This document shows, in pieces, positions 11,164 to 64,000 of a DNA stretch of 64,000 nucleotides. Each line of letters opens with the position of its first letter. The stretch's first letter is position 1. Source of the stretch: Escherichia phage vB_EcoM_HZ_ZJUN4; sequence record PP216085. The stretch is one strand, 5' to 3'. Made by a program: the position numbers and the translations under genes. A model generated the notes under the pieces. The model was not told where the DNA came from, did not search any database, and saw nothing but the letters and a program-made list of their open reading frames with translations.

Positions 11164-11588
11164 AACGTATCGTCGTAAAGATTTAAAAGTACGTGATTAT
11201 GACTATTTCGGAAAGCGTAAAGCTCCTGATGGTGTAAGTCATAAAGATATGGTTGAAAACATTTTTCACTCAGATAAATGACGTAGAATGAAAGGCATTG
11301 ATTCAGAAGTTAAAGATGAGTTAAATCGTCAATTACGTGGTGAAGTAAGAAAGTTGAAAAAATCAGTTTACATTGACGATGATTTTGATTACAATACTTC
11401 TCAACGAGTTGCTAAGCGTAAATCAAACGAGTGCTATCGTTACAGCTGAGGAAAATATGAATATCAAACGCATGCTTTTTAAACAGGGATTATATACTTT
11501 AAATGTTGCTCCAAAAGGCGATACGACCAAGTGGTCAGTAAATGACTGGATTAAATTTATTGATGAAAACGGTAACTGGAAAATTTAA

Positions 11589-11789
11589 ATGAATCCTGAA
11601 TCTAAATTATCGCAACGAATTGCTGAAGCTCGTCGTCAGTTCTTTGAAAATATGATAGCCCAAGGTATTGATGACGAAGTTTTTCTGAACTGGTTTTGGA
11701 ATCACAAATATTCAAAATGCGCAGGAGCAATATTAATATCAGCCGCAATGATGTACGAAGGCTGGAAGGGTGCCAAACAGTTTAGCTAA
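11589..11789 (+). CDS. hypothetical protein
   Basis: Track ORF, 66 aa. Confidence 0.45.
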   Translation: MNPESKLSQRIAEARRQFFENMIAQGIDDEVFLNWFWNHKYSKCAGAILISAAMMYEGWKGAKQFS

Positions 11790-11806
11790 GGGCTTCGGCC
11801 CTTTTT
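11790..11806 (+). terminator. GGGCTTCGGCCC hairpin (UUCG loop) + U-tract
   Basis: Perfect GC stem with UUCG tetraloop followed by TTTTT. Confidence 0.55.
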
Positions 11807-11841
11807 GGATAATAAAATTTTAATGCAATTGAGGATAATGT

Positions 11842-12168
11842 ATGACTATTCAAATTAAAAACGCCATCAATTCTTACGCATATGATAAAGTAGTTTCTTT
11901 GCTAGAAAAAGGCGATATTGTAACTCCTCAAATTTTGGATAAATGGGAAAAAGAGCTTCATCAGACGATGAAACAGAATGATCAGAAAATTGGACGAAAT
12001 ACTATCCGTGAATTGTTGGTTCAATATATCTTGTCAGAATTTGATGTTAAAGCTTTTGGCGTAGAATCTAAAGCTTATCAAAAGCATGAAATTTCTGATA
12101 AAACTATTCGTCGTATGAAAAATCAACGCAAGAAAAAATTTGCTGACCTGAAAATTGCTAAGGTATGA
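11842..12168 (+). CDS. hypothetical protein
   Basis: Track ORF, 108 aa, RBS GAGGATAATG. Confidence 0.5.
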   Translation: MTIQIKNAINSYAYDKVVSLLEKGDIVTPQILDKWEKELHQTMKQNDQKIGRNTIRELLVQYILSEFDVKAFGVESKAYQKHEISDKTIRRMKNQRKKKFADLKIAKV

Positions 12169-12386
12169 ATATGAACGAAGCTCTTATTAACGATTTGCGT
12201 CTTGCCGGATATGAAGTAAATACAAACGGCATTGGTTTAACTCAAATTGAAGGAAATGGATTCATCCTTGAGTATGAATTTAGCCAATGGTGGTTATACG
12301 CTAATTACGGCGAATTGATTGAATACGTTGACCAGTTTGATTCACTAGATGCAGCTCTCGAAGCGGCTAAGTTGATGAATGTATGA
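12165..12386 (+). CDS. hypothetical protein
   Basis: Track ORF, 73 aa, ATGA overlap. Confidence 0.45.
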   Translation: MNMNEALINDLRLAGYEVNTNGIGLTQIEGNGFILEYEFSQWWLYANYGELIEYVDQFDSLDAALEAAKLMNV

Positions 12387-12652
12387 AATTTATTAATATT
12401 TCTATTACTATTGAAAATTATGGAATTTTCTATGTTGACCAATACATGAAAATTTCATTTTTCCCAAATAAGACTGGTGTTGGATATTGGGAAAGCCATG
12501 TTTCTGAATTAAATGAAAGTGAATATGCTAGCACACATGAAAAGTTTTTAGACTTTTTATATCATGCTGATTTAACTAGTCATTACATAGATATTCATGA
12601 ATTTAAAAAGATGATGGAGAAAGTGTTCCAAGCATACTGTTTACTTAGATAA
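12383..12652 (+). CDS. hypothetical protein
   Basis: Track ORF, 89 aa, ATGA overlap. Confidence 0.4.
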   Translation: MKFINISITIENYGIFYVDQYMKISFFPNKTGVGYWESHVSELNESEYASTHEKFLDFLYHADLTSHYIDIHEFKKMMEKVFQAYCLLR

Positions 12653-36465: not shown

Positions 36466-36669
36466 TTGATTTTTTATGCATGGCAAAAAGCCGGGAGACC
36501 GGCTAGTCGAGCATTTGGTTCCGATGGATATAATATTAGAGCCCATTGGAAATTTAATGCTCCAGAAGATTATTCTCCGGTAATTATTAACGGCGATGTT
36601 GTTATATTAACTAAAATCGGGTATTTTAACGTTCCGCGAGAATTTATTATAAATAATCATGTAATTTAA
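36466..36669 (+). CDS. hypothetical protein
   Basis: Track ORF, 67 aa; contains soc late promoter near its 3' end. Confidence 0.3.
   Translation: MIFYAWQKAGRPASRAFGSDGYNIRAHWKFNAPEDYSPVIINGDVVILTKIGYFNVPREFIINNHVI
36648..36655 (+). promoter_or_regulatory. late promoter core TATAAATA upstream of soc
   Basis: Exact TATAAATA about 30 nt upstream of soc ATG. Confidence 0.5.
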
Positions 36670-46390: not shown

Positions 46391-47941
46391 ATGATTAAGA
46401 ATGAAATTAAAATTCTAAGCGATATTGAACATATCAAAAAGCGTAGCGGCATGTATATTGGCTCTTCTGCTAATGAAATGCATGAGCGCTTTCTGTTTGG
46501 TAAATGGGAAAGTGTTCAGTATGTACCTGGTCTTGTTAAGCTTATTGATGAAATTATCGATAACTCAGTAGATGAAGGTATTCGTACTAAGTTTAAATTC
46601 GCAAATAAAATTAATGTTACTATTAAAAACAATCAAGTAACAGTTGAAGATAACGGTCGTGGTATTCCACAAGCGATGGTTAAAACACCTACCGGTGAAG
46701 AAATTCCTGGTCCTGTTGCTGCATGGACTATTCCAAAAGCAGGCGGTAACTTTGGTGATGATAAAGAACGCGTCACTGGCGGTATGAACGGTGTTGGTTC
46801 TAGTTTAACTAACATTTTTTCTGTGATGTTTGTCGGTGAAACTGGCGACGGTCAAAATAATATTGTAGTTCGTTGTTCAAATGGCATGGAAAATAAATCA
46901 TGGGAAACTATTCCTGGAAAATGGAAAGGAACTCGCGTTACTTTCATTCCTGATTTTATGTCATTTGAAACTAATGAGCTATCTCAAGTTTATCTTGACA
47001 TTACACTAGATCGTCTCCAGACACTTGCAGTAGTTTATCCTGATATTCAATTTACCTTTAATGGTAAAAAGGTTCAGGGTAATTTTAAGAAATATGCACG
47101 CCAATATGATGAACACGCTATCGTTCAAGAACAAGAAAATTGTTCTATTGCGGTTGGTCGTTCACCCGATGGTTTTCGTCAATTAACATACGTCAATAAC
47201 ATTCATACTAAGAATGGTGGCCATCACATTGACTGCGTTATGGATGATATTTGTGAAGACCTTATTCCACAAATCAAACGTAAGTTCAAAATTGACGTAA
47301 CTAAAGCACGTGTTAAAGAATGTTTGACTATCGTTATGTTTGTTCGTGATATGAAAAACATGCGATTTGATTCTCAAACTAAAGAGCGTCTGACTTCTCC
47401 ATTTGGTGAAATCCGTAGTCATATTCAGCTTGATGCTAAAAAGATTTCACGTGCTATTTTGAATAATGAAGCAATTTTAATGCCAATCATTGAAGCTGCC
47501 TTGGCTCGTAAATTGGCGGCAGAAAAAGCAGCAGAAACTAAAGCAGCTAAAAAGGCTTCTAAAGCTAAGGTTCATAAACATATTAAAGCGAATCTTTGCG
47601 GTAAAGATGCTGATACTACTCTTTTCTTGACTGAGGGTGATTCTGCTATCGGATATCTTATTGATGTTCGTGATAAAGAACTTCATGGTGGTTATCCATT
47701 GCGTGGTAAAGTTCTTAACAGTTGGGGTATGTCATATGCTGATATGCTTAAAAATAAAGAACTGTTTGATATTTGCGCAATCACTGGATTAGTTCTTGGT
47801 GAAAAGGCGTTTGAAGAAAAAGAAGATGGCGAGTGGTTTACTTTCGAACTAAATGGCGATACAATTATCGTAAATGAAAATGATGAAGTACAGATTAATG
47901 GTAAATGGATAACAGTAGGTGAATTACGAAAAAATCTATAA
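46391..47941 (+). CDS. 39: DNA topoisomerase II large subunit gp39 (GyrB-like ATPase)
   Basis: ATG after CGAGGATAA; GHKL ATPase motifs (IDNSVDEG, DNGRGIP); 516 aa. Confidence 0.92.
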   Translation: MIKNEIKILSDIEHIKKRSGMYIGSSANEMHERFLFGKWESVQYVPGLVKLIDEIIDNSVDEGIRTKFKFANKINVTIKNNQVTVEDNGRGIPQAMVKTPTGEEIPGPVAAWTIPKAGGNFGDDKERVTGGMNGVGSSLTNIFSVMFVGETGDGQNNIVVRCSNGMENKSWETIPGKWKGTRVTFIPDFMSFETNELSQVYLDITLDRLQTLAVVYPDIQFTFNGKKVQGNFKKYARQYDEHAIVQEQENCSIAVGRSPDGFRQLTYVNNIHTKNGGHHIDCVMDDICEDLIPQIKRKFKIDVTKARVKECLTIVMFVRDMKNMRFDSQTKERLTSPFGEIRSHIQLDAKKISRAILNNEAILMPIIEAALARKLAAEKAAETKAAKKASKAKVHKHIKANLCGKDADTTLFLTEGDSAIGYLIDVRDKELHGGYPLRGKVLNSWGMSYADMLKNKELFDICAITGLVLGEKAFEEKEDGEWFTFELNGDTIIVNENDEVQINGKWITVGELRKNL

Positions 47942-48737
47942 TGACTTAATAGTGCGGGGTAAAACCCGCGTTTCTAAATTTAAGGGTGAAATTCATCATA
48001 TCCTTCCAAGATCAATGGGAGGTTCTGATGATAAAGAAAATTTGGTGAAACTGACTTTTCGTGAACATTTTTTAGCACATTTTCTACTATATAAAATTCA
48101 TCGTAATCGTGAAATGGCATATGCGATGAATAGAATGTTAAACACTGAAAAATATTTACGTTCTAGTAAATTATATGAAATTACTAGAATTTACCATCAA
48201 AGAGCAGTATCTGAATGGTCAAAAAACTTTATGAAAGATAAAGTTTTAATGAGAAGTATTAAATCGGGTAAATGCGCCTTATTAATTAAAGGATCATTTA
48301 ACCCAAAGGAATGGTGCGGTGTTAATAAAGGTGTTAAGCTTCCTGGAATTAAAGGCATGACATGCTTTAAAAATGAAAAAGGCGAAGTTTTTCGTCTTCA
48401 TGTTAATGATCCACGCATTAAAGCTGAAAAATTAGTTGGTATTGGAAATACTGTTGCTGCTACTGCAAAAGCAGCTGAACTTGAAAAAGCGAAACCATGG
48501 TATAATAAATCAGCGACAAATCCAGAGGCTGTAAAATTAATACCAAATTTATATGAATGGTACGTCACGAAATATGACCCCGATCATTATAAACGAACGG
48601 GAGTTGCTAAATGGAAATCAGTTAATAATATAACTGTGAATTCAAAATTATTCGGCCGAGCATTTAATGAATTTAAACGCGGTTGGATTCCTGATGAAAA
48701 GTTCTATGAGGTGTATAATGAAATTTGTAAAAATTGA
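47919..48737 (+). CDS. mobA: HNH homing endonuclease MobA between genes 39 and 60
   Basis: 272 aa; HNH region EIHHILPRSMGGSDDKENLVKLTFREHFLAH; overlaps gene 39 end (23 nt) and gene 60 start (20 nt). Confidence 0.85.
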   Translation: MNYEKIYNDLIVRGKTRVSKFKGEIHHILPRSMGGSDDKENLVKLTFREHFLAHFLLYKIHRNREMAYAMNRMLNTEKYLRSSKLYEITRIYHQRAVSEWSKNFMKDKVLMRSIKSGKCALLIKGSFNPKEWCGVNKGVKLPGIKGMTCFKNEKGEVFRLHVNDPRIKAEKLVGIGNTVAATAKAAELEKAKPWYNKSATNPEAVKLIPNLYEWYVTKYDPDHYKRTGVAKWKSVNNITVNSKLFGRAFNEFKRGWIPDEKFYEVYNEICKN

Positions 48738-49250
48738 TTCTTCTAGCGTTGATATGAAAAAATATAAATTGCAGAACAATGTTCGTCGTTCTATTAAATC
48801 CTCTTCAATGAACTATGCGAATGTCGCTATTATGACAGACGCAGATCACGATGGATAGCCTTCGGGCTATCTATAGAAATACCTCATAATTAAGAGATTA
48901 TTGGATTAGGTTCTATTTATCCTTCTCTGCTCGGATTTTTTAGTAATTGGCCAGAATTGTTTGAACAAGGAAGAATTCGCTTTGTCAAAACTCCTGTAAT
49001 CATCGCTCAGGTCGGTAAAAAACAAGAATGGTTTTATACAGTCGCTGAATATGAGAGTGCCAAAGATGCTCTACCTAAACATAGCATCCGTTATATTAAA
49101 GGACTTGGCTCTTTGGAAAAATCTGAATATCGTGAGATGATTCAAAACCCAGTATATGATGTTGTTAAACTTCCTGAGAACTGGAAAGAGCTTTTTGAAA
49201 TGCTCATGGGAGATAATGCTGACCTTCGTAAAGAATGGATGAGCCAGTAG
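48718..49250 (+). CDS. 60: DNA topoisomerase II small subunit gp60, translated by ribosomal bypass of a 50-nt gap (segment 1 48718..48855, segment 2 48906..49250)
   Basis: Segment 1 ends ...DADHDG at GGA then TAG; matching GGA lies 47 nt downstream and the continuing frame encodes LGSIYPSLLGFFSNWPELFEQGRIRF...; matches recalled T4 gp60. Confidence 0.9.
48853..48908 (+). other. gene 60 translational bypass (hop) element: take-off GGA, UAG stop, CCUUCGGG hairpin, landing GGA
   Basis: GGATAGCCTTCGGGCTATCTATAGAAATACCTCATAATTAAGAGATTATTGGATTA read directly. Confidence 0.9.
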
Positions 49251-60402: not shown

Positions 60403-61059
60403 TTATTTAGCCCTTCCTAATATTCTGGCCGCCTGAGAACATATTGATTCAAGGCGGTCATTACTTATATGATCATTTCTATACCAGTACATGGTTATTG
60501 TTCCAGCATAGATATTATCCAAATTGAAATATGGACAACTGTACATGTAATTTATTTCAGGAGTAGGCTTTTTAGTTGGTAAAAAAGCAAATTTTGAGTC
60601 GGAATAATAATGACGTCCATTTAAATGAACTGTATATTCATCCATAGTTTTATCAACAGGATATCCTCCAAGTGATTTTTCACTTATTGTTGAAGGTAAT
60701 TTTCCTTCATATGCTATAATATCAACAAAATAGTTTAAGTTTTTAGGGCGGAAAGAATACACCGCACTAAAGTCTGCCTCAGATGATATGTGAACTATCT
60801 GGAGTTGTTCCAGGGCGACAGATTCAAAGCGTGCATTTCTTTCCTTTTCAATAATTTCACTGTATGTTTCATACTTTGATTGCTTATAGTACTCAAAGAA
60901 ACTATCTCCCCTATACCAAACAATCGCCATTATAAACAAAAGAATTACGACAGCTACTCGGGAAGCAAGAACCTTCCCGGTAGCGTTATCTTTGAACAAG
61001 CGATCTAGAACACCCAACAGAATATCAGAGGGCGAAAATGATATTCTAGGTGCTGCCAT
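60403..61059 (-). CDS. t: holin T
   Basis: 218 aa MAAPRISFSPSDILLGVLDRLFKDNATGKVLASRVAVVILLFIMAIVWYRGD; single TMD plus large periplasmic domain; matches recalled T4 gpt. Confidence 0.95.
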   Translation of the reverse strand: MAAPRISFSPSDILLGVLDRLFKDNATGKVLASRVAVVILLFIMAIVWYRGDSFFEYYKQSKYETYSEIIEKERNARFESVALEQLQIVHISSEADFSAVYSFRPKNLNYFVDIIAYEGKLPSTISEKSLGGYPVDKTMDEYTVHLNGRHYYSDSKFAFLPTKKPTPEINYMYSCPYFNLDNIYAGTITMYWYRNDHISNDRLESICSQAARILGRAK

Positions 61060-61089
61060 AGACCCTCCTTTTAAGGGTATTTATTCAAA

Positions 61090-61866
61090 TTATACTCTTG
61101 GACCATATATTGCTCCAACGTTTTGCCATGTCGGTGTAGACCCTATGACGGCATAACCGGCAGCTCCGCCATCGTATTCATATCCTTGACCACGAATATT
61201 ACATCTACCTCCCGCTGAACCTACTTCACCGCCGTTTCCACCATTATAGATACCATTCACGGATCCTGAGCCAGGTGCAGAAATAGTACCGCCAGTCGCG
61301 CCTGATTGCATATCAATAGATCCGCCTGGCGCACCAAAAGGACGACCGCCACCGCCGCCAAAGGTCAATCTCATTTGTGAAAAAGGAGAATAATATCCGC
61401 CGCCACCGCCGCCGCCGCCGCCTGCAATAGCTCCGCCATTATTAATTCTTAGTCTCCCACCAATATCGTTTTGAATACAATGACCTCCAGCTGAGCCAGG
61501 ACTATTGCTACCGCCATTACCTCCACGACCATACATCGTTACGCCATGTATATTTAACTGAACATATTCATTTGGTGTATCTCCGTACATGAAGAATAAA
61601 GGAACATCTTTAGAATATGATACTAAATCTCCAGTGATATTAAACACTATAGGTGCACTACCTGCCTCAAAACATCTATCTCGGAACCATTGGCCATTGA
61701 AGTTATGGTCTGCTCCAAGCGTGTGAATTATTTCAACAGACCGCCCGTTCATATTACTCATCCAAAACGGAATACCCATTCTCAATCGTTGGGCGGCGCC
61801 GCCCATCCAATTTTGTCCTGTATTAACTACTGCAGACGATCCTACCCACGGTCCTGTTACTGCCAT
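61090..61866 (-). CDS. 38: long tail fiber adhesin gp38, T2-type with glycine-rich motifs
   Basis: Track ORF 61090..61878 (TTG) trimmed to ATG after GGAGG; polyglycine runs [11 protein letters not shown] and [13 protein letters not shown] separating variable segments. Confidence 0.85.
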
Positions 61867-61878
61867 ATAAACCTCCAA

Positions 61879-61892
61879 GGGGCCGAAGCCCC
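61879..61892 (-). other. GGGGCUUCGGCCCC hairpin in the 37-38 intergenic region
   Basis: UUCG-loop hairpin between gp37 stop and gp38 RBS; no U-tract. Confidence 0.4.
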
Positions 61893-61897
61893 TCTTA

Positions 61898-64000
61898 TTA
61901 TTTTAACAATGATTTAACTAATGCTTTAAGTTCTTCAATTTCTGATTTAAGTTCCGCAATTTCTGCAGTATGCTCATTGATTGCAGCTGTATTTAAACCA
62001 ATTACGCCGTTATAGTTCAAACGAAGTAAAGCTTCACCATCAGGGTCACCTTCAACTAATTCTGGTAAAATAGCTTGAACTTCTTGAGCTATCAAACCGG
62101 CGTTAGGTTCCCATTTCTGATTGCCTTCTTCATCTAGGCCTCGCTTCTGCATATAAGTGTAACCGTTAATTTTAGAAAGCTTCTCAGAAGCATTTTCAAA
62201 TTTAACAAGGTCTTTTTTAACACGAATATCAGAGCGGACATAAACGTCACGAACAAATGTTGAATAGTTGTCATTCGCCTGAATCAAATGACCATGTGAA
62301 ATAATAGCTTTGTCAACTTCAGTCCATAAAGCAGCACCAACAGACCACAATCCTGGGTGTTCTTGATGGAAAACCCCCCATGACGCAATATGTTGTCCGT
62401 TAGCAAACATGTTAATACGACCATCACCGCCATGGACTAAACCAGTATCATTATCACCGATGGCGATAGATGCTCCGCCCCATACCGGAATTGTACCGAC
62501 ACCCAAGTTAACACCAGCGCGAAGACCAGCCGGAGCTTTAAAATCGCCATTAGCTTGAAACACAAATATTGCATTAGGATGACTGCTATCTCCACTTTCC
62601 GCAGAACCAACACGAATTACTGCATTTCCCCAAGTAGCATCTCCGCCCAATCTAATAATACCAAAATCTGCCTTTGTTGCATATCCTTCGTTAATGATTT
62701 GGCTTCTTCCTTTAATTATAGGCATATAACTATCTTTCGGAACAGATTCACCAAAGTCAACGAAGAATGGGGCTTCTGTTTGCCATTGATTACTATATCC
62801 GTGGCCTTGGGTAGCTGTCCATTGTCTTCCGTTTAAATATAAACGATAAAAATTTAATGAAGCTGCAGTAGCTTGATTTTTAACATTAAAGTCAATATCG
62901 CCTACACTATTAAGAGTAATTCCTGCCGTAGTCTTAAAATTATAAAATGAAGCAGTGTCATCTGCCCCGCCTTTACCGATGTACCATGAATTCGCTCCAC
63001 CTGATGTTCCAAGTAAATAACCAGAATCATTTTCATCGGCAGCAATGTTAATAGCGTCAGAGCCTCTTTTAACGATTAATTTGCCGGTCATCGTATCGCC
63101 TTCTTTAGCAACACGGGAGGCAATAGCATCATGAAGGTTGGTTATATCACCAGCAGAGCTAAATAATTTCCAAATATCAGAGAAGATATTACCATTTCGA
63201 GCAATAGTAGCTTCGCCGCCACCGACCTGTACGTTATCCGGGAAGTTAACTGTACCGTCCTGATTAAAACGAGACGTATGGCCTTGTGAACCATCTTCTT
63301 TCAGATGATGAATAACGAATGTACCCGAATTAATTTCAGTACCTAAAGACCAAACAGCTTTGCCGTTTAAAAACTTCTGTTTAACAATAGGATAATATTT
63401 GCTTATAGCATCATCATCAATTTCCTGGAAAATAGGAGCTGCTTGAACATACTGAATGTCATAACCACCAGCGCCTGCGCCATGACCAGTAAATTTAATA
63501 TAGCCGTTTGCTGCGAACGTATTGTAACTTGATTGTAAATCTGGAATAGTAACTTTACCAGTATCTAAAGCCATACTAAACGGGCGAAGTGGACCGATAT
63601 CACCATATTTACCTTCACCGTAAGCAGTTGGAATAATATGAAGACTTCCTTCTGAACGTCTAAAAATGGCTCCATAATCTGCGTTCCAAATACGAAGAGC
63701 ATTCACTGCTCCAGATGAAATTTCGCCTGTTGTGTGAACTCCTCTATTTCCAGCAGTAACACCGGATGATTCAAATGAACCATTGACGTTCATTTCTACT
63801 TCGCCGGTAGTAAGTCTTTGAATATAGCTCATCCAACTAGTTGCGTCAGAAATTTCCATGACATTTTTACGATTACCTACGCTAGGATTAGTAAACGTAT
63901 TACCCCATACAGAAATTGTCATATTATCAACTGAACTGCTACCAGTTGTGTTACCTCTAAACATCAGCGTAGAAGCATTATTACGACCATCAATATTAAC
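61898..64000 (-). CDS. 37: long tail fiber distal subunit gp37 (C-terminal part; 5' end beyond window)
   Basis: ORF open to the window edge; C-terminal segment SDIRVKKD...[14 protein letters not shown] resembles an intramolecular-chaperone/auto-cleavage domain. Confidence 0.9.

Follow-up and report, generated by a model that had tools for sequence, protein, structure and literature searches.

The adhesin-capped end of the long tail fibre in Escherichia phage vB_EcoM_HZ_ZJUN4 and its probable receptor

At one end of the stretch of DNA analysed here (the window, 64,000 nucleotides of record PP216085) lie gene 38 and the 3′ part of gene 37. The locus raises the question of whether its gp38 is an adhesin that stays on the fibre tip, as in T2 and T6, or an assembly chaperone that leaves it, as in T4, and, if an adhesin, which receptor it binds. 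We conclude with high confidence that the locus codes for the distal end of a T-even long tail fibre capped by an adhesin, the T2/T6 design, with the nucleoside channel Tsx as the most likely receptor, and we found no sequence evidence that contradicts the adhesin-capped model.

Gene 38 and the domains of its adhesin

Gene 38 (61090..61866, minus strand, stop codon at 61090-61092) encodes a 258 amino acid receptor-binding adhesin. The open reading frame occupies 61090-61878 (minus strand) and would give 262 amino acids from a TTG start or 258 from the ATG at 61864-61866. We take the ATG as the real start because a GGAGG Shine-Dalgarno sequence (61872-61876) lies 5 nt upstream of it; the TTG, 12 nt before the ATG, falls inside the intercistronic hairpin, and the 262 amino acid version was rejected. 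This hairpin (GAGGGGC-UUCG-GCCCCUU, 61877..61894, minus strand) separates genes 37 and 38 and is directly followed by the Shine-Dalgarno sequence. A 61-nt stretch containing it folds at -17.8 kcal/mol (z -2.3), and a hairpin is present at this position in T4, T2, T6, RB27, KMB40, KIT03, and JEP6 as well. A scan of the whole window against Rfam gave no family at threshold. Immediately downstream of gene 38, as in every T-even phage, is gene t, a holin (60403..61059, minus strand; PF11031, E 8e-118), and the placement of gene 38 between gene 37 and t is shared by the same seven phages.

The protein belongs to the T-even adhesin family. It matches PF05268 (GP38) over all 218 profile positions (1-218 of 218; E 4e-71, 239.7 bits, cut-off 25) and PHROG 2056, “tail fiber protein; host specificity” (E 3e-109). 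Among solved structures it matches PDB 9V85 (E 2e-80), identified as the PP01 gp38 receptor-binding domain in PMC12892980, and 6F45_D, the gp38 of Salmonella phage S16 (E 2e-51), with the glycine motifs aligned in both. NCBIfam has no model for either gp37 or gp38. A cluster look-up returned the exact gp38 sequence as NCBI WVX92832.1, deposited for phage vB_EcoM_HZ_ZJUN4, though an index of contigs by exact protein held no record for it.

The N-terminal attachment domain (amino acids 1-39; 61750..61866, minus strand) matches PF21721, Gp38_N (E 3e-21, 75.5 bits, cut-off 25), and contains Trp7, Trp20, and Trp35, which are invariant in an alignment with T2, T6, RB27, and KMB40. This domain should fit into the gp37 trimer at its tip, by analogy with S16 gp38, whose tryptophan “prongs” dock into the gp37 tip according to PMC7917993. 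S16 gp38, matched along its full length, has these N-terminal tryptophans and all of the glycine motifs in common with the protein studied here. In its subtype the attachment domain is unlike that of T6 and matches the RB27/S16 form.

The remainder of the protein is organized around five glycine-rich motifs in fixed order that part four variable segments, which is the published definition of a T-even adhesin (PMC3157838). All of the following are on the minus strand and are delimited by alignment. Motif 1 (GRGGNGG, amino acids 113-119, 61510..61530; G113-G118 are invariant columns) precedes variable segment 1 (amino acids 120-129, 61480..61509), which is identical to that of T6. Motif 2 (amino acids 142-157, 61396..61443) includes a run of nine glycines and leads into variable segment 2 (amino acids 158-169, 61360..61395), with one difference from T6 (S163, a proline in T6). 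Then come motif 3 (GGGGGRPFG, amino acids 170-178, 61333..61359; G170-G178 invariant), variable segment 3 (amino acids 179-208, 61243..61332; two differences from T6), motif 4 (GGNGGEVG, amino acids 209-216, 61219..61242), and variable segment 4 (amino acids 217-231, 61174..61218; one difference). Motif 5 (DGGAAGYAV) and a conserved C-terminal end complete the protein (amino acids 232-258, 61093..61173).

Glycine accounts for 24% of gp38 overall and for 34% within residues 110-258. In comparison with T2, T6, RB27, KMB40, KIT03, and JEP6 the glycine blocks form invariant columns, and they are kept in the gp38 of S16 and PP01; the segments between them vary across the same alignment, as the original prediction had expected. 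It had also described a protein of about 258-262 amino acids with polyglycine blocks, and the open reading frame agrees with that length and contains both of the glycine strings that were quoted (Gly149-157 at 61396-61422, and Gly170-174 onwards at 61345-61359). We predict a polyglycine-II “sandwich” fold for the C-terminal domain, made up of the five conserved motifs, from which the four variable segments would project as loops that touch the outer-membrane receptor.

Comparison with the gene of phage KMB40 identified 44 codons that differ synonymously and three that differ non-synonymously (N41I, G192A, and S200A in KMB40), so strong purifying selection acts on gp38, including within its “variable” segments.

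The gp37 end and its intramolecular chaperone

Gene 37 encodes the distal subunit of the long tail fibre, and its last 701 codons, including the stop at 61898-61900, are in the window (61898..64000, minus strand). The frame is open from base 64000 to the stop, so the gene extends past the window end, and the 688 amino acid protein given in the list of open reading frames was rejected; full-length gp37 of relatives has 1103-1108 amino acids. The encoded part matches PHROG 1699, “long tail fiber protein distal subunit” (E 8e-193), and its closest relatives are the gp37 of UFV06 (94.6% amino acid identity) and KIT03 (93.9%).

The C-terminal 111 amino acids, from Ser590 (residue numbers are those of the in-window part) to the end of the protein, form a Peptidase_S74 intramolecular chaperone (61901..62233, minus strand; PF13884, 49 bits, cut-off 22), and the domain match starts one residue after Ser590. 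The motif SDIRVKKD occupies residues 590-597 and is followed by 103 more residues. Ser590 (62231-62233) is the predicted nucleophile, Lys595 is encoded at 62216-62218, and a Ser-Lys dyad of this kind is reportedly the catalytic pair, from work on endosialidases. Residues R589, S590, D591, R593, and K595 do not vary across T2, T6, RB27, and KMB40.

Similarity to S16 gp37 (6F45_A) is E 1e-43 overall and E 8e-35 over the chaperone part, with RDVYVR/SDIRVKKD aligned to RDLNVS/SDRRIKKD of S16. In S16 autocleavage occurs at that bond and releases 113 residues (PMC7917993). By this analogy we predict cleavage between Arg589 and Ser590 (VYVR/SDIRVK), with a mature fibre part that comprises in-window residues 1-589 (62234..64000, minus strand) and aligns with S16 gp37 up to RDLNVS. 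The original prediction that the gp37 C-terminus resembles auto-cleaving chaperone domains is thus supported by both the domain match and the aligned cleavage site. The two proteins differ in the residue before the cleaved bond (Arg here, Ser in S16) and in a 12-residue insertion in the gp37 tip relative to S16. The processing of such a gp37 is no open question, because it is documented for S16 (PMC7917993) and for T2, the latter by Drexler et al. 1986 as cited by Trojet et al. (PMC3157838).

The chaperone module is widespread. Endosialidases, other phage fibres, and eukaryotic MYRF have PF13884, a C-terminal module of about 110 residues that opens with S-D-x-R-x-K, and the gp37 chaperone could be aligned over S/A-D-x-R-x-K with MYRF and with another phage fibre (SDERLK). 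About 20 PHROG tail-fibre families match gp37 only at this terminal module, by their own C-terminal ends. Compared with other Peptidase_S74 proteins, the domain here comes after a T-even gp37 shaft, and cleaving it off, judging from S16, would create a docking site for a separate adhesin and not the final receptor-binding surface.

Taken as a mechanism, gp37 (about 1,100 amino acids, the last 700 in the window) would trimerise with the help of its own 111-residue chaperone, which would then cut itself off by means of Ser590 and Lys595. The new end of gp37 (...FVRDVYVR) would expose a hydrophobic triangular tip whose terminal strand probably forms the docking surface for gp38; docking of gp38 onto the gp37 end is known from the S16 structure, as described in PMC7917993. 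One gp38 monomer would dock there by its N-terminal domain and its three tryptophans, for a probable gp37:gp38 stoichiometry of 3:1.

Adhesin subtype and probable receptor

The original prediction placed gp38 in the T2 family of adhesins. This is right for the type of adhesin and is refined here for the specificity domain, whose sequence places it in the T6/RB27 (Tsx) subtype and not with that of T2 itself. Amino acid identity is 98.8% to KMB40, 98% to PD112, 96% to RB27, 95.3% to FL23 and FL44, 88% to T6, and 50% to T2. The gp38 proteins of KMB40, PD112, RB27, FL23/FL44, and T6 have the same gene position, domain order, and five glycine motifs, their four variable segments are nearly the same, and all fall with the window protein in one 90% cluster. 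The 258 amino acid length is that of the Tsx-binding relatives, with 261 in T6.

T2 gp37 and gp38, the classical example of an adhesin with a proteolytically processed gp37, have the same architecture (a C-terminal Peptidase_S74 domain and an adhesin with the same glycine motifs), but identity is 50% in gp38 and 33% in gp37, the attachment-domain and chaperone subtypes differ, and the T2 receptor is FadL/OmpF (PMC3157838). PP01 gp38 (9V85) is the best match among solved structures, with a beta-helix region and glycine lattice nearly identical to those of the protein studied here; all four variable segments differ, and the PP01 receptor is OmpC of E. coli O157, contacted by loops D and E (PMC12892980). 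The variable loops of S16 (PDB 6F45; Dunne et al. 2018, as described in PMC7917993 and PMC12892980) also differ, and S16 binds Salmonella OmpC.

Tsx is used by phages with T6-like adhesins, including RB27 and RB14 (Trojet et al., PMC3157838), and deletion of tsx abolishes the infectivity of FL23 and FL44 (PMC12032242). We predict that Tsx is most likely the receptor of this phage because the variable segments scarcely differ from those of T6, RB27, and FL23/FL44, and RB27, FL23, and T6 have been shown to need Tsx. We treat this as a prediction because about 10-12 residues differ from the tested RB27 and FL23 adhesins, and small changes can shift or widen T6-like specificity.

The module could be as described and yet use OmpA, LPS, or a dual specificity instead of Tsx, or in addition to it, since a handful of changes in their variable segments redirects T6-like adhesins. 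We consider this unlikely. Phage PST has three residue differences from the T6 adhesin, gains OmpA/Yersinia specificity, and requires OmpA, Tsx, FhuA, and LPS (PMC3157838), and the Tsx group is phylogenetically close to one class of OmpA-binding adhesins (PMC12032242). The protein also has residues that are absent from RB27 or T6, such as Y229 (also in KMB40), S163, and D185. At the positions that define the PST host range (Q167, M168, and G208 in T6), however, it has the T6 residues, with the Q-M pair in variable segment 2; its four variable segments are nearly those of T6 (0, 1, 2, and 1 differences); and the nearest experimentally typed adhesins (95-96% identity) are Tsx-dependent. These observations argue for Tsx.

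Mosaic ancestry, T4, and gene 60

The adhesin module is an already known and well-studied system, and only the local mosaic in gp37 is new. A distal-shaft segment (62420..63120, minus strand), delimited by sliding-window identity and protein alignment, is of KIT03/JEP6 type and begins just upstream of a GDTMTG motif. Its nucleotide identity is 92-98% to KIT03 and 78-98% to JEP6 (least similar towards 62420), compared with 48-74% to RB27 and KMB40. Next to it is a tip patch of roughly 150 nt (62270..62420, minus strand; about residues 527-577) that is unlike every relative examined, with 59-73% nucleotide identity to four relatives in the sliding window; in a search of 50,697 phage records, the best hit to 62180-62520 is 84-86% identical, and no deposited phage exceeds 86% over the patch. 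In KMB40, RB27, KIT03, and JEP6, too, the patch differs from one phage to the next, and beside it the chaperone and docking strand hardly vary.

The chaperone, the docking strand, and the gp38 N-terminal domain have one ancestry, RB27/JEP6-like (62270-61540), and the segments flanking them differ. This shared ancestry agrees, in a lock-and-key manner, with reports that gp37 C-terminus subtypes go together with gp38 N-terminus subtypes (PMC3157838) and that T2 gp37 proved incompatible with PP01 gp38 in experiments (PMC12892980). More speculatively, and we think improbably, the tip patch may be a second hypervariable determinant on the fibre tip that positions gp38 or touches LPS or a co-receptor as a secondary contact; if so, host range would be set by the pairing of gp37 tip and gp38 rather than by gp38 alone.

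The mosaic could in principle be an assembly chimera and not a phage allele, with a shaft resembling that of KIT03, the unique tip patch, and a chaperone and adhesin resembling those of RB27 joined by error. Along the 3 kb, the identity to each single relative changes sharply, and the 150-nt patch is without a close match in the phage records searched. We nevertheless regard a chimera as very improbable, as the reading frame is unbroken over all junctions, the junctions coincide with established borders between modules (at the GDTMTG motif, just upstream of the chaperone, and at glycine motif 1), the patch is variable among all compared relatives, the exact gp38 protein was deposited from a 167,022-bp phage genome, and published work shows such mosaicism to be the rule in these genes (PMC3157838).

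T4 has the same gene order (36-37-38-t) and the same UUCG hairpin between genes 37 and 38, and T4 gp37 is homologous to the proximal two-fifths of the in-window gp37 (30% identity over 349 amino acids). That gp38 could be an assembly chaperone that leaves the fibre, with gp37 itself binding the receptor as in T4, is scarcely credible: gene 38 does sit where T4 gene 38 sits, between gene 37 and t, and T2-type gp38 also acts first as a chaperone (PMC7917993), but direct BLASTP found no similarity to T4 gp38 (E 1.9, identities 5/12), T4 gp38 matches no Pfam family whereas the window protein matches the adhesin families, the T4 gp37 end (Pfam Collar and Phage_fiber, with a Collar and His-repeat needle that binds the receptor itself) is replaced here by the S74 chaperone also found on T2 and T6 gp37, and the homologue structure 6F45 shows gp38 at the fibre tip. 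The fibre-tip adhesin originally proposed, as opposed to the short T4 chaperone, is thus the reading that we retain.

The same genome was described as having a T4-type gene 60, and it does. This topoisomerase subunit gene (48718..49250, plus strand) is 99.6% identical in nucleotides to T4 records that annotate the bypass region, and it consists of codons 1-46 (48718-48855) and codons 47-160 plus the stop (114 codons; 48906-49250). Between them, directly after a take-off GGA, is a 50-nt gap (48856-48905) with a UAG stop, a UUCG hairpin, and a landing GGA. The take-off site and hairpin, GGATAGCCTTCGGGCTATC, occur once in the window, at 48853, with 0 expected. Gene 60 is of the T4 type with a bypass gap, and bypassing is predicted. 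Between genes 39 and 60 is an open reading frame for a mobA-like HNH homing endonuclease (47919..48737, plus strand), annotated as “mobA: homing endonuclease” in the matching records of T4T, RB55, and RB59, and this mobA-bypass cassette is present in 40 phage records. The pairing of a T2-like adhesin with a T4-like gene 60 is not unusual, as at least four of the phages with this cassette have the adhesin-type fibre module too (PD112, JEP6, vB_EcoM_112, and PEC04).

Published work already covers the architecture, gp37 autoprocessing, the motif and loop design of gp38, and how adhesin subtype relates to receptor, and we give the module little weight as a discovery. Its practical value is in annotation, as Tsx use becomes predictable for this phage. 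The mosaic junctions at the GDTMTG motif, the chaperone start, and glycine motif 1 illustrate natural sites of fibre-module exchange and provide background for host-range engineering.

Gp38 adhesin and its predicted receptor

Gene 38 (61090-61866, minus strand) was also identified by Pfam. Its reading frame has two candidate starts: a TTG, which would give 262 amino acids, and the ATG at 61864-61866, which would give 258. We accept the ATG, because it is preceded at a distance of 5 nt by GGAGG and because the TTG is buried in a stable hairpin. The length of 258-262 amino acids and the polyglycine blocks noted in the original prediction are present; both quoted glycine strings occur (residues 149-159 and 170-182, numbered from the ATG), and residues 110-258 are 34% glycine. 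The protein was proposed to be a T2-family adhesin and not the T4 chaperone, and database matches bear this out. It covers the whole Pfam GP38 profile (E 4e-71) and matches Gp38_N (E 3e-21), PHROG 2056, "tail fiber protein; host specificity" (E 3e-109), and the solved gp38 structures of phage PP01 (9V85, E 2e-80; PMC12892980) and Salmonella phage S16 (6F45_D, E 2e-51), whereas BLASTP against T4 gp38 gives E 1.9. Alignments with T2, T6, RB27, KMB40, KIT03 and JEP6 contain five invariant glycine-rich motifs and four variable intervening segments, the organization described by Trojet et al. (PMC3157838). Thus neither outcome named as contradicting the proposal was found: gp38 does not align with the T4 type, and its glycine blocks are conserved.

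The family assignment stands, and the subtype is that of T6 rather than T2: gp38 shares 99% identity with KMB40, 96% with RB27, and 88% with T6, but just 50% with T2. Variable segments 1-4 differ from those of T6 at 0, 1, 2, and 1 positions, respectively. Phages with T6-like adhesins, including RB27 and RB14, use the nucleoside channel Tsx (Trojet et al., PMC3157838), and FL23 and FL44, with gp38 95.3% identical to the one studied here, depend on tsx (PMC12032242). The broader-range phage PST differs from T6 by Q167R, M168I, and G208I in gp38 (PMC3157838); the T6 residues are retained at all three positions. Based on the T6-like segments, the adhesins of these Tsx-using phages and the residues at the PST positions, we predict that Tsx is probably the receptor; a firmer statement is unwarranted, since it is known that a few substitutions can redirect such adhesins to another receptor. 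Gene 38 differs from that of KMB40 by 44 synonymous and 3 non-synonymous codons, with the silent differences mostly in variable segments 3 and 4. This ratio indicates that the "hypervariable" loops are under strong purifying selection within the Tsx-type subtype.

The gp37 C-terminal chaperone and the gene 37/38 boundary

Only the 3′ part of gene 37, the long tail fibre distal subunit, is in the window (61898-64000, minus strand). Counted from the edge of the window, the frame is open for 701 codons and closes with the stop at 61898-61900, so a 688-amino acid open reading frame, the portion after the first in-frame ATG, was rejected as the full protein; relatives have 1103-1108 amino acids. 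The SDIRVKKD motif reported earlier starts at residue 590, counted from base 64000, and 103 more residues lie between it and the end of the protein. The suggested resemblance to autocleaving intramolecular chaperones is upheld by a match to Peptidase_S74 (PF13884, 49 bits; cut-off 22) and by similarity of the last 235 residues to S16 gp37 (6F45_A, E 1e-43). RDVYVR/SDIRVKKD aligns with RDLNVS/SDRRIKKD of S16, where cleavage at the marked bond releases 113 residues and exposes the gp38 docking surface; cleavage is predicted after DVYIR in related Yersinia phages (PMC7917993). The domain predicted to be released here has 111 residues (61901-62233, minus strand). No substitution occurs at R589, S590, D591, R593, or K595 in T2, T6, RB27, or KMB40. 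Peptidase_S74 is also found in T2 and T6 gp37, whereas T4 gp37 has the Collar and Phage_fiber tip in its place. Drexler et al. 1986, as cited in PMC3157838, reported that T2 gp37 is processed. Matches confined to this terminal module occur in about 20 different PHROG fibre families, in each case at the family's own C-terminal end, and the module is thus a cassette that many fibres share.

The gap separating genes 37 and 38 is taken up by a hairpin with a 7-bp stem and a UUCG loop (GAGGGGC-UUCG-GCCCCUU; 61877-61894, minus strand), which borders directly on the Shine-Dalgarno sequence of gp38. T4, T2, T6, RB27, KMB40, KIT03, and JEP6 have a nearly identical hairpin at the same place; in T4 this is so although its own gene 38 and the adhesin gene are unrelated. 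The window's hairpin also has a terminator-like score on the plus strand. It may act by stabilizing mRNA or by setting the ratio of gp37 to gp38 translation, or it may be a conserved recombination point.

Genome setting and gene 60

The window comes from the genome of a T4-like phage (Tequatrovirus). Over 24 kb it shows 95-97% identity to phages such as JEP6, PD112, PEC04, BMB16, and GEP001, and no identical record was found in the phage collection. Early genes, including 39, mobA, 60, rIIA, rIIB, 52 (topoisomerase medium subunit), and motA, are on the plus strand, and the final 3.6 kb contains late genes on the minus strand, among them the t holin (60403-61059; PF11031, E 8e-118). The T6 reference record (MH550421) has no CDS annotated at 11208-12537, the expected place of gene 52 between motA.1 and 52.1. 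The T4 late-promoter consensus TATAAATA occurs only once in the 64 kb (36648-36655, plus strand), where shuffled sequence would give 10.2 +/- 3.5 copies. The site upstream of t reads AATAAATA in the window (61078-61085, minus strand), T2, T6, RB27, and KIT03, and TATAAATA in T4.

The T4-type gene 60 (48718-49250, plus strand) was correctly recognized: sequence reading and motif matching recover the complete set of take-off GGA, UAG stop, UUCG hairpin, 50-nt gap (48856-48905), and landing GGA. The bypass would join 46 and 114 codons. An Rfam scan of positions 1-64000 returned 0 families at gathering score, so the window has no known RNA elements, group I introns included; the bypass element was likewise undetected by it. 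An intact-looking open reading frame for a mobA-like HNH homing endonuclease adjoins gene 60 (47919-48737, plus strand). Most T4 records match the 1-kb mobA-bypass cassette at 99.6% identity, and the AF158101/NC_000866 reference matches it at 98.2%. Of 50,697 phage records, only 40 have the cassette complete; they include PD112 (gp38 97.7% identical to that in the window), JEP6, vB_EcoM_112, and PEC04. Given these carriers, a T2/T6-type fibre tip with a T4-type gene 60 is an ordinary mosaic combination.

Mosaic ancestry of the fibre tip

Identity to relatives changes in steps along genes 37 and 38 (all minus strand). The proximal in-window part of gp37 (64000-63170) is about 90-100% identical to all relatives. 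The distal shaft, which starts near a GDTMTG motif (63120-62420), is 92-98% identical to KIT03, 78-98% to JEP6, and 48-74% to RB27 and KMB40. A tip patch (62420-62270) is 59-73% identical to all four relatives compared, and the best match to 62180-62520 among the 50,697 records has 84-86% nucleotide identity. The docking strand, chaperone, gp38 N-domain, and beta-helix (62270-61540) are mostly 87-100% identical to RB27, KMB40, and JEP6, with JEP6 falling to 76-78% over 61720-61870. From glycine motif 1, the gp38 specificity domain (61540-61120) is RB27/KMB40-like, whereas KIT03 and JEP6 have a different set of variable segments.

By these profiles, the chaperone, docking strand, and gp38 N-domain are co-inherited, which fits the published "lock-and-key" pairing (PMC3157838) and experiments in which T2 gp37 and PP01 gp38 proved incompatible (PMC12892980). 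The tip patch, just before the docking strand, differs among all relatives compared, and the adjacent chaperone is nearly invariant; the patch is the only unexplored element and a lead of low probability.

The exact gp38 sequence is on deposit (WVX92832.1, from the 167,022-bp contig of Escherichia phage vB_EcoM_HZ_ZJUN4), and RB27, PD112, FL23, and T4_ev151 are among the 76 members of its 90% cluster. The feature is already known, and the design and mechanism of the fibre tip are textbook for T-even phages; the initial observation is confirmed and its interpretation supported, with refinement to the T6/Tsx subtype.
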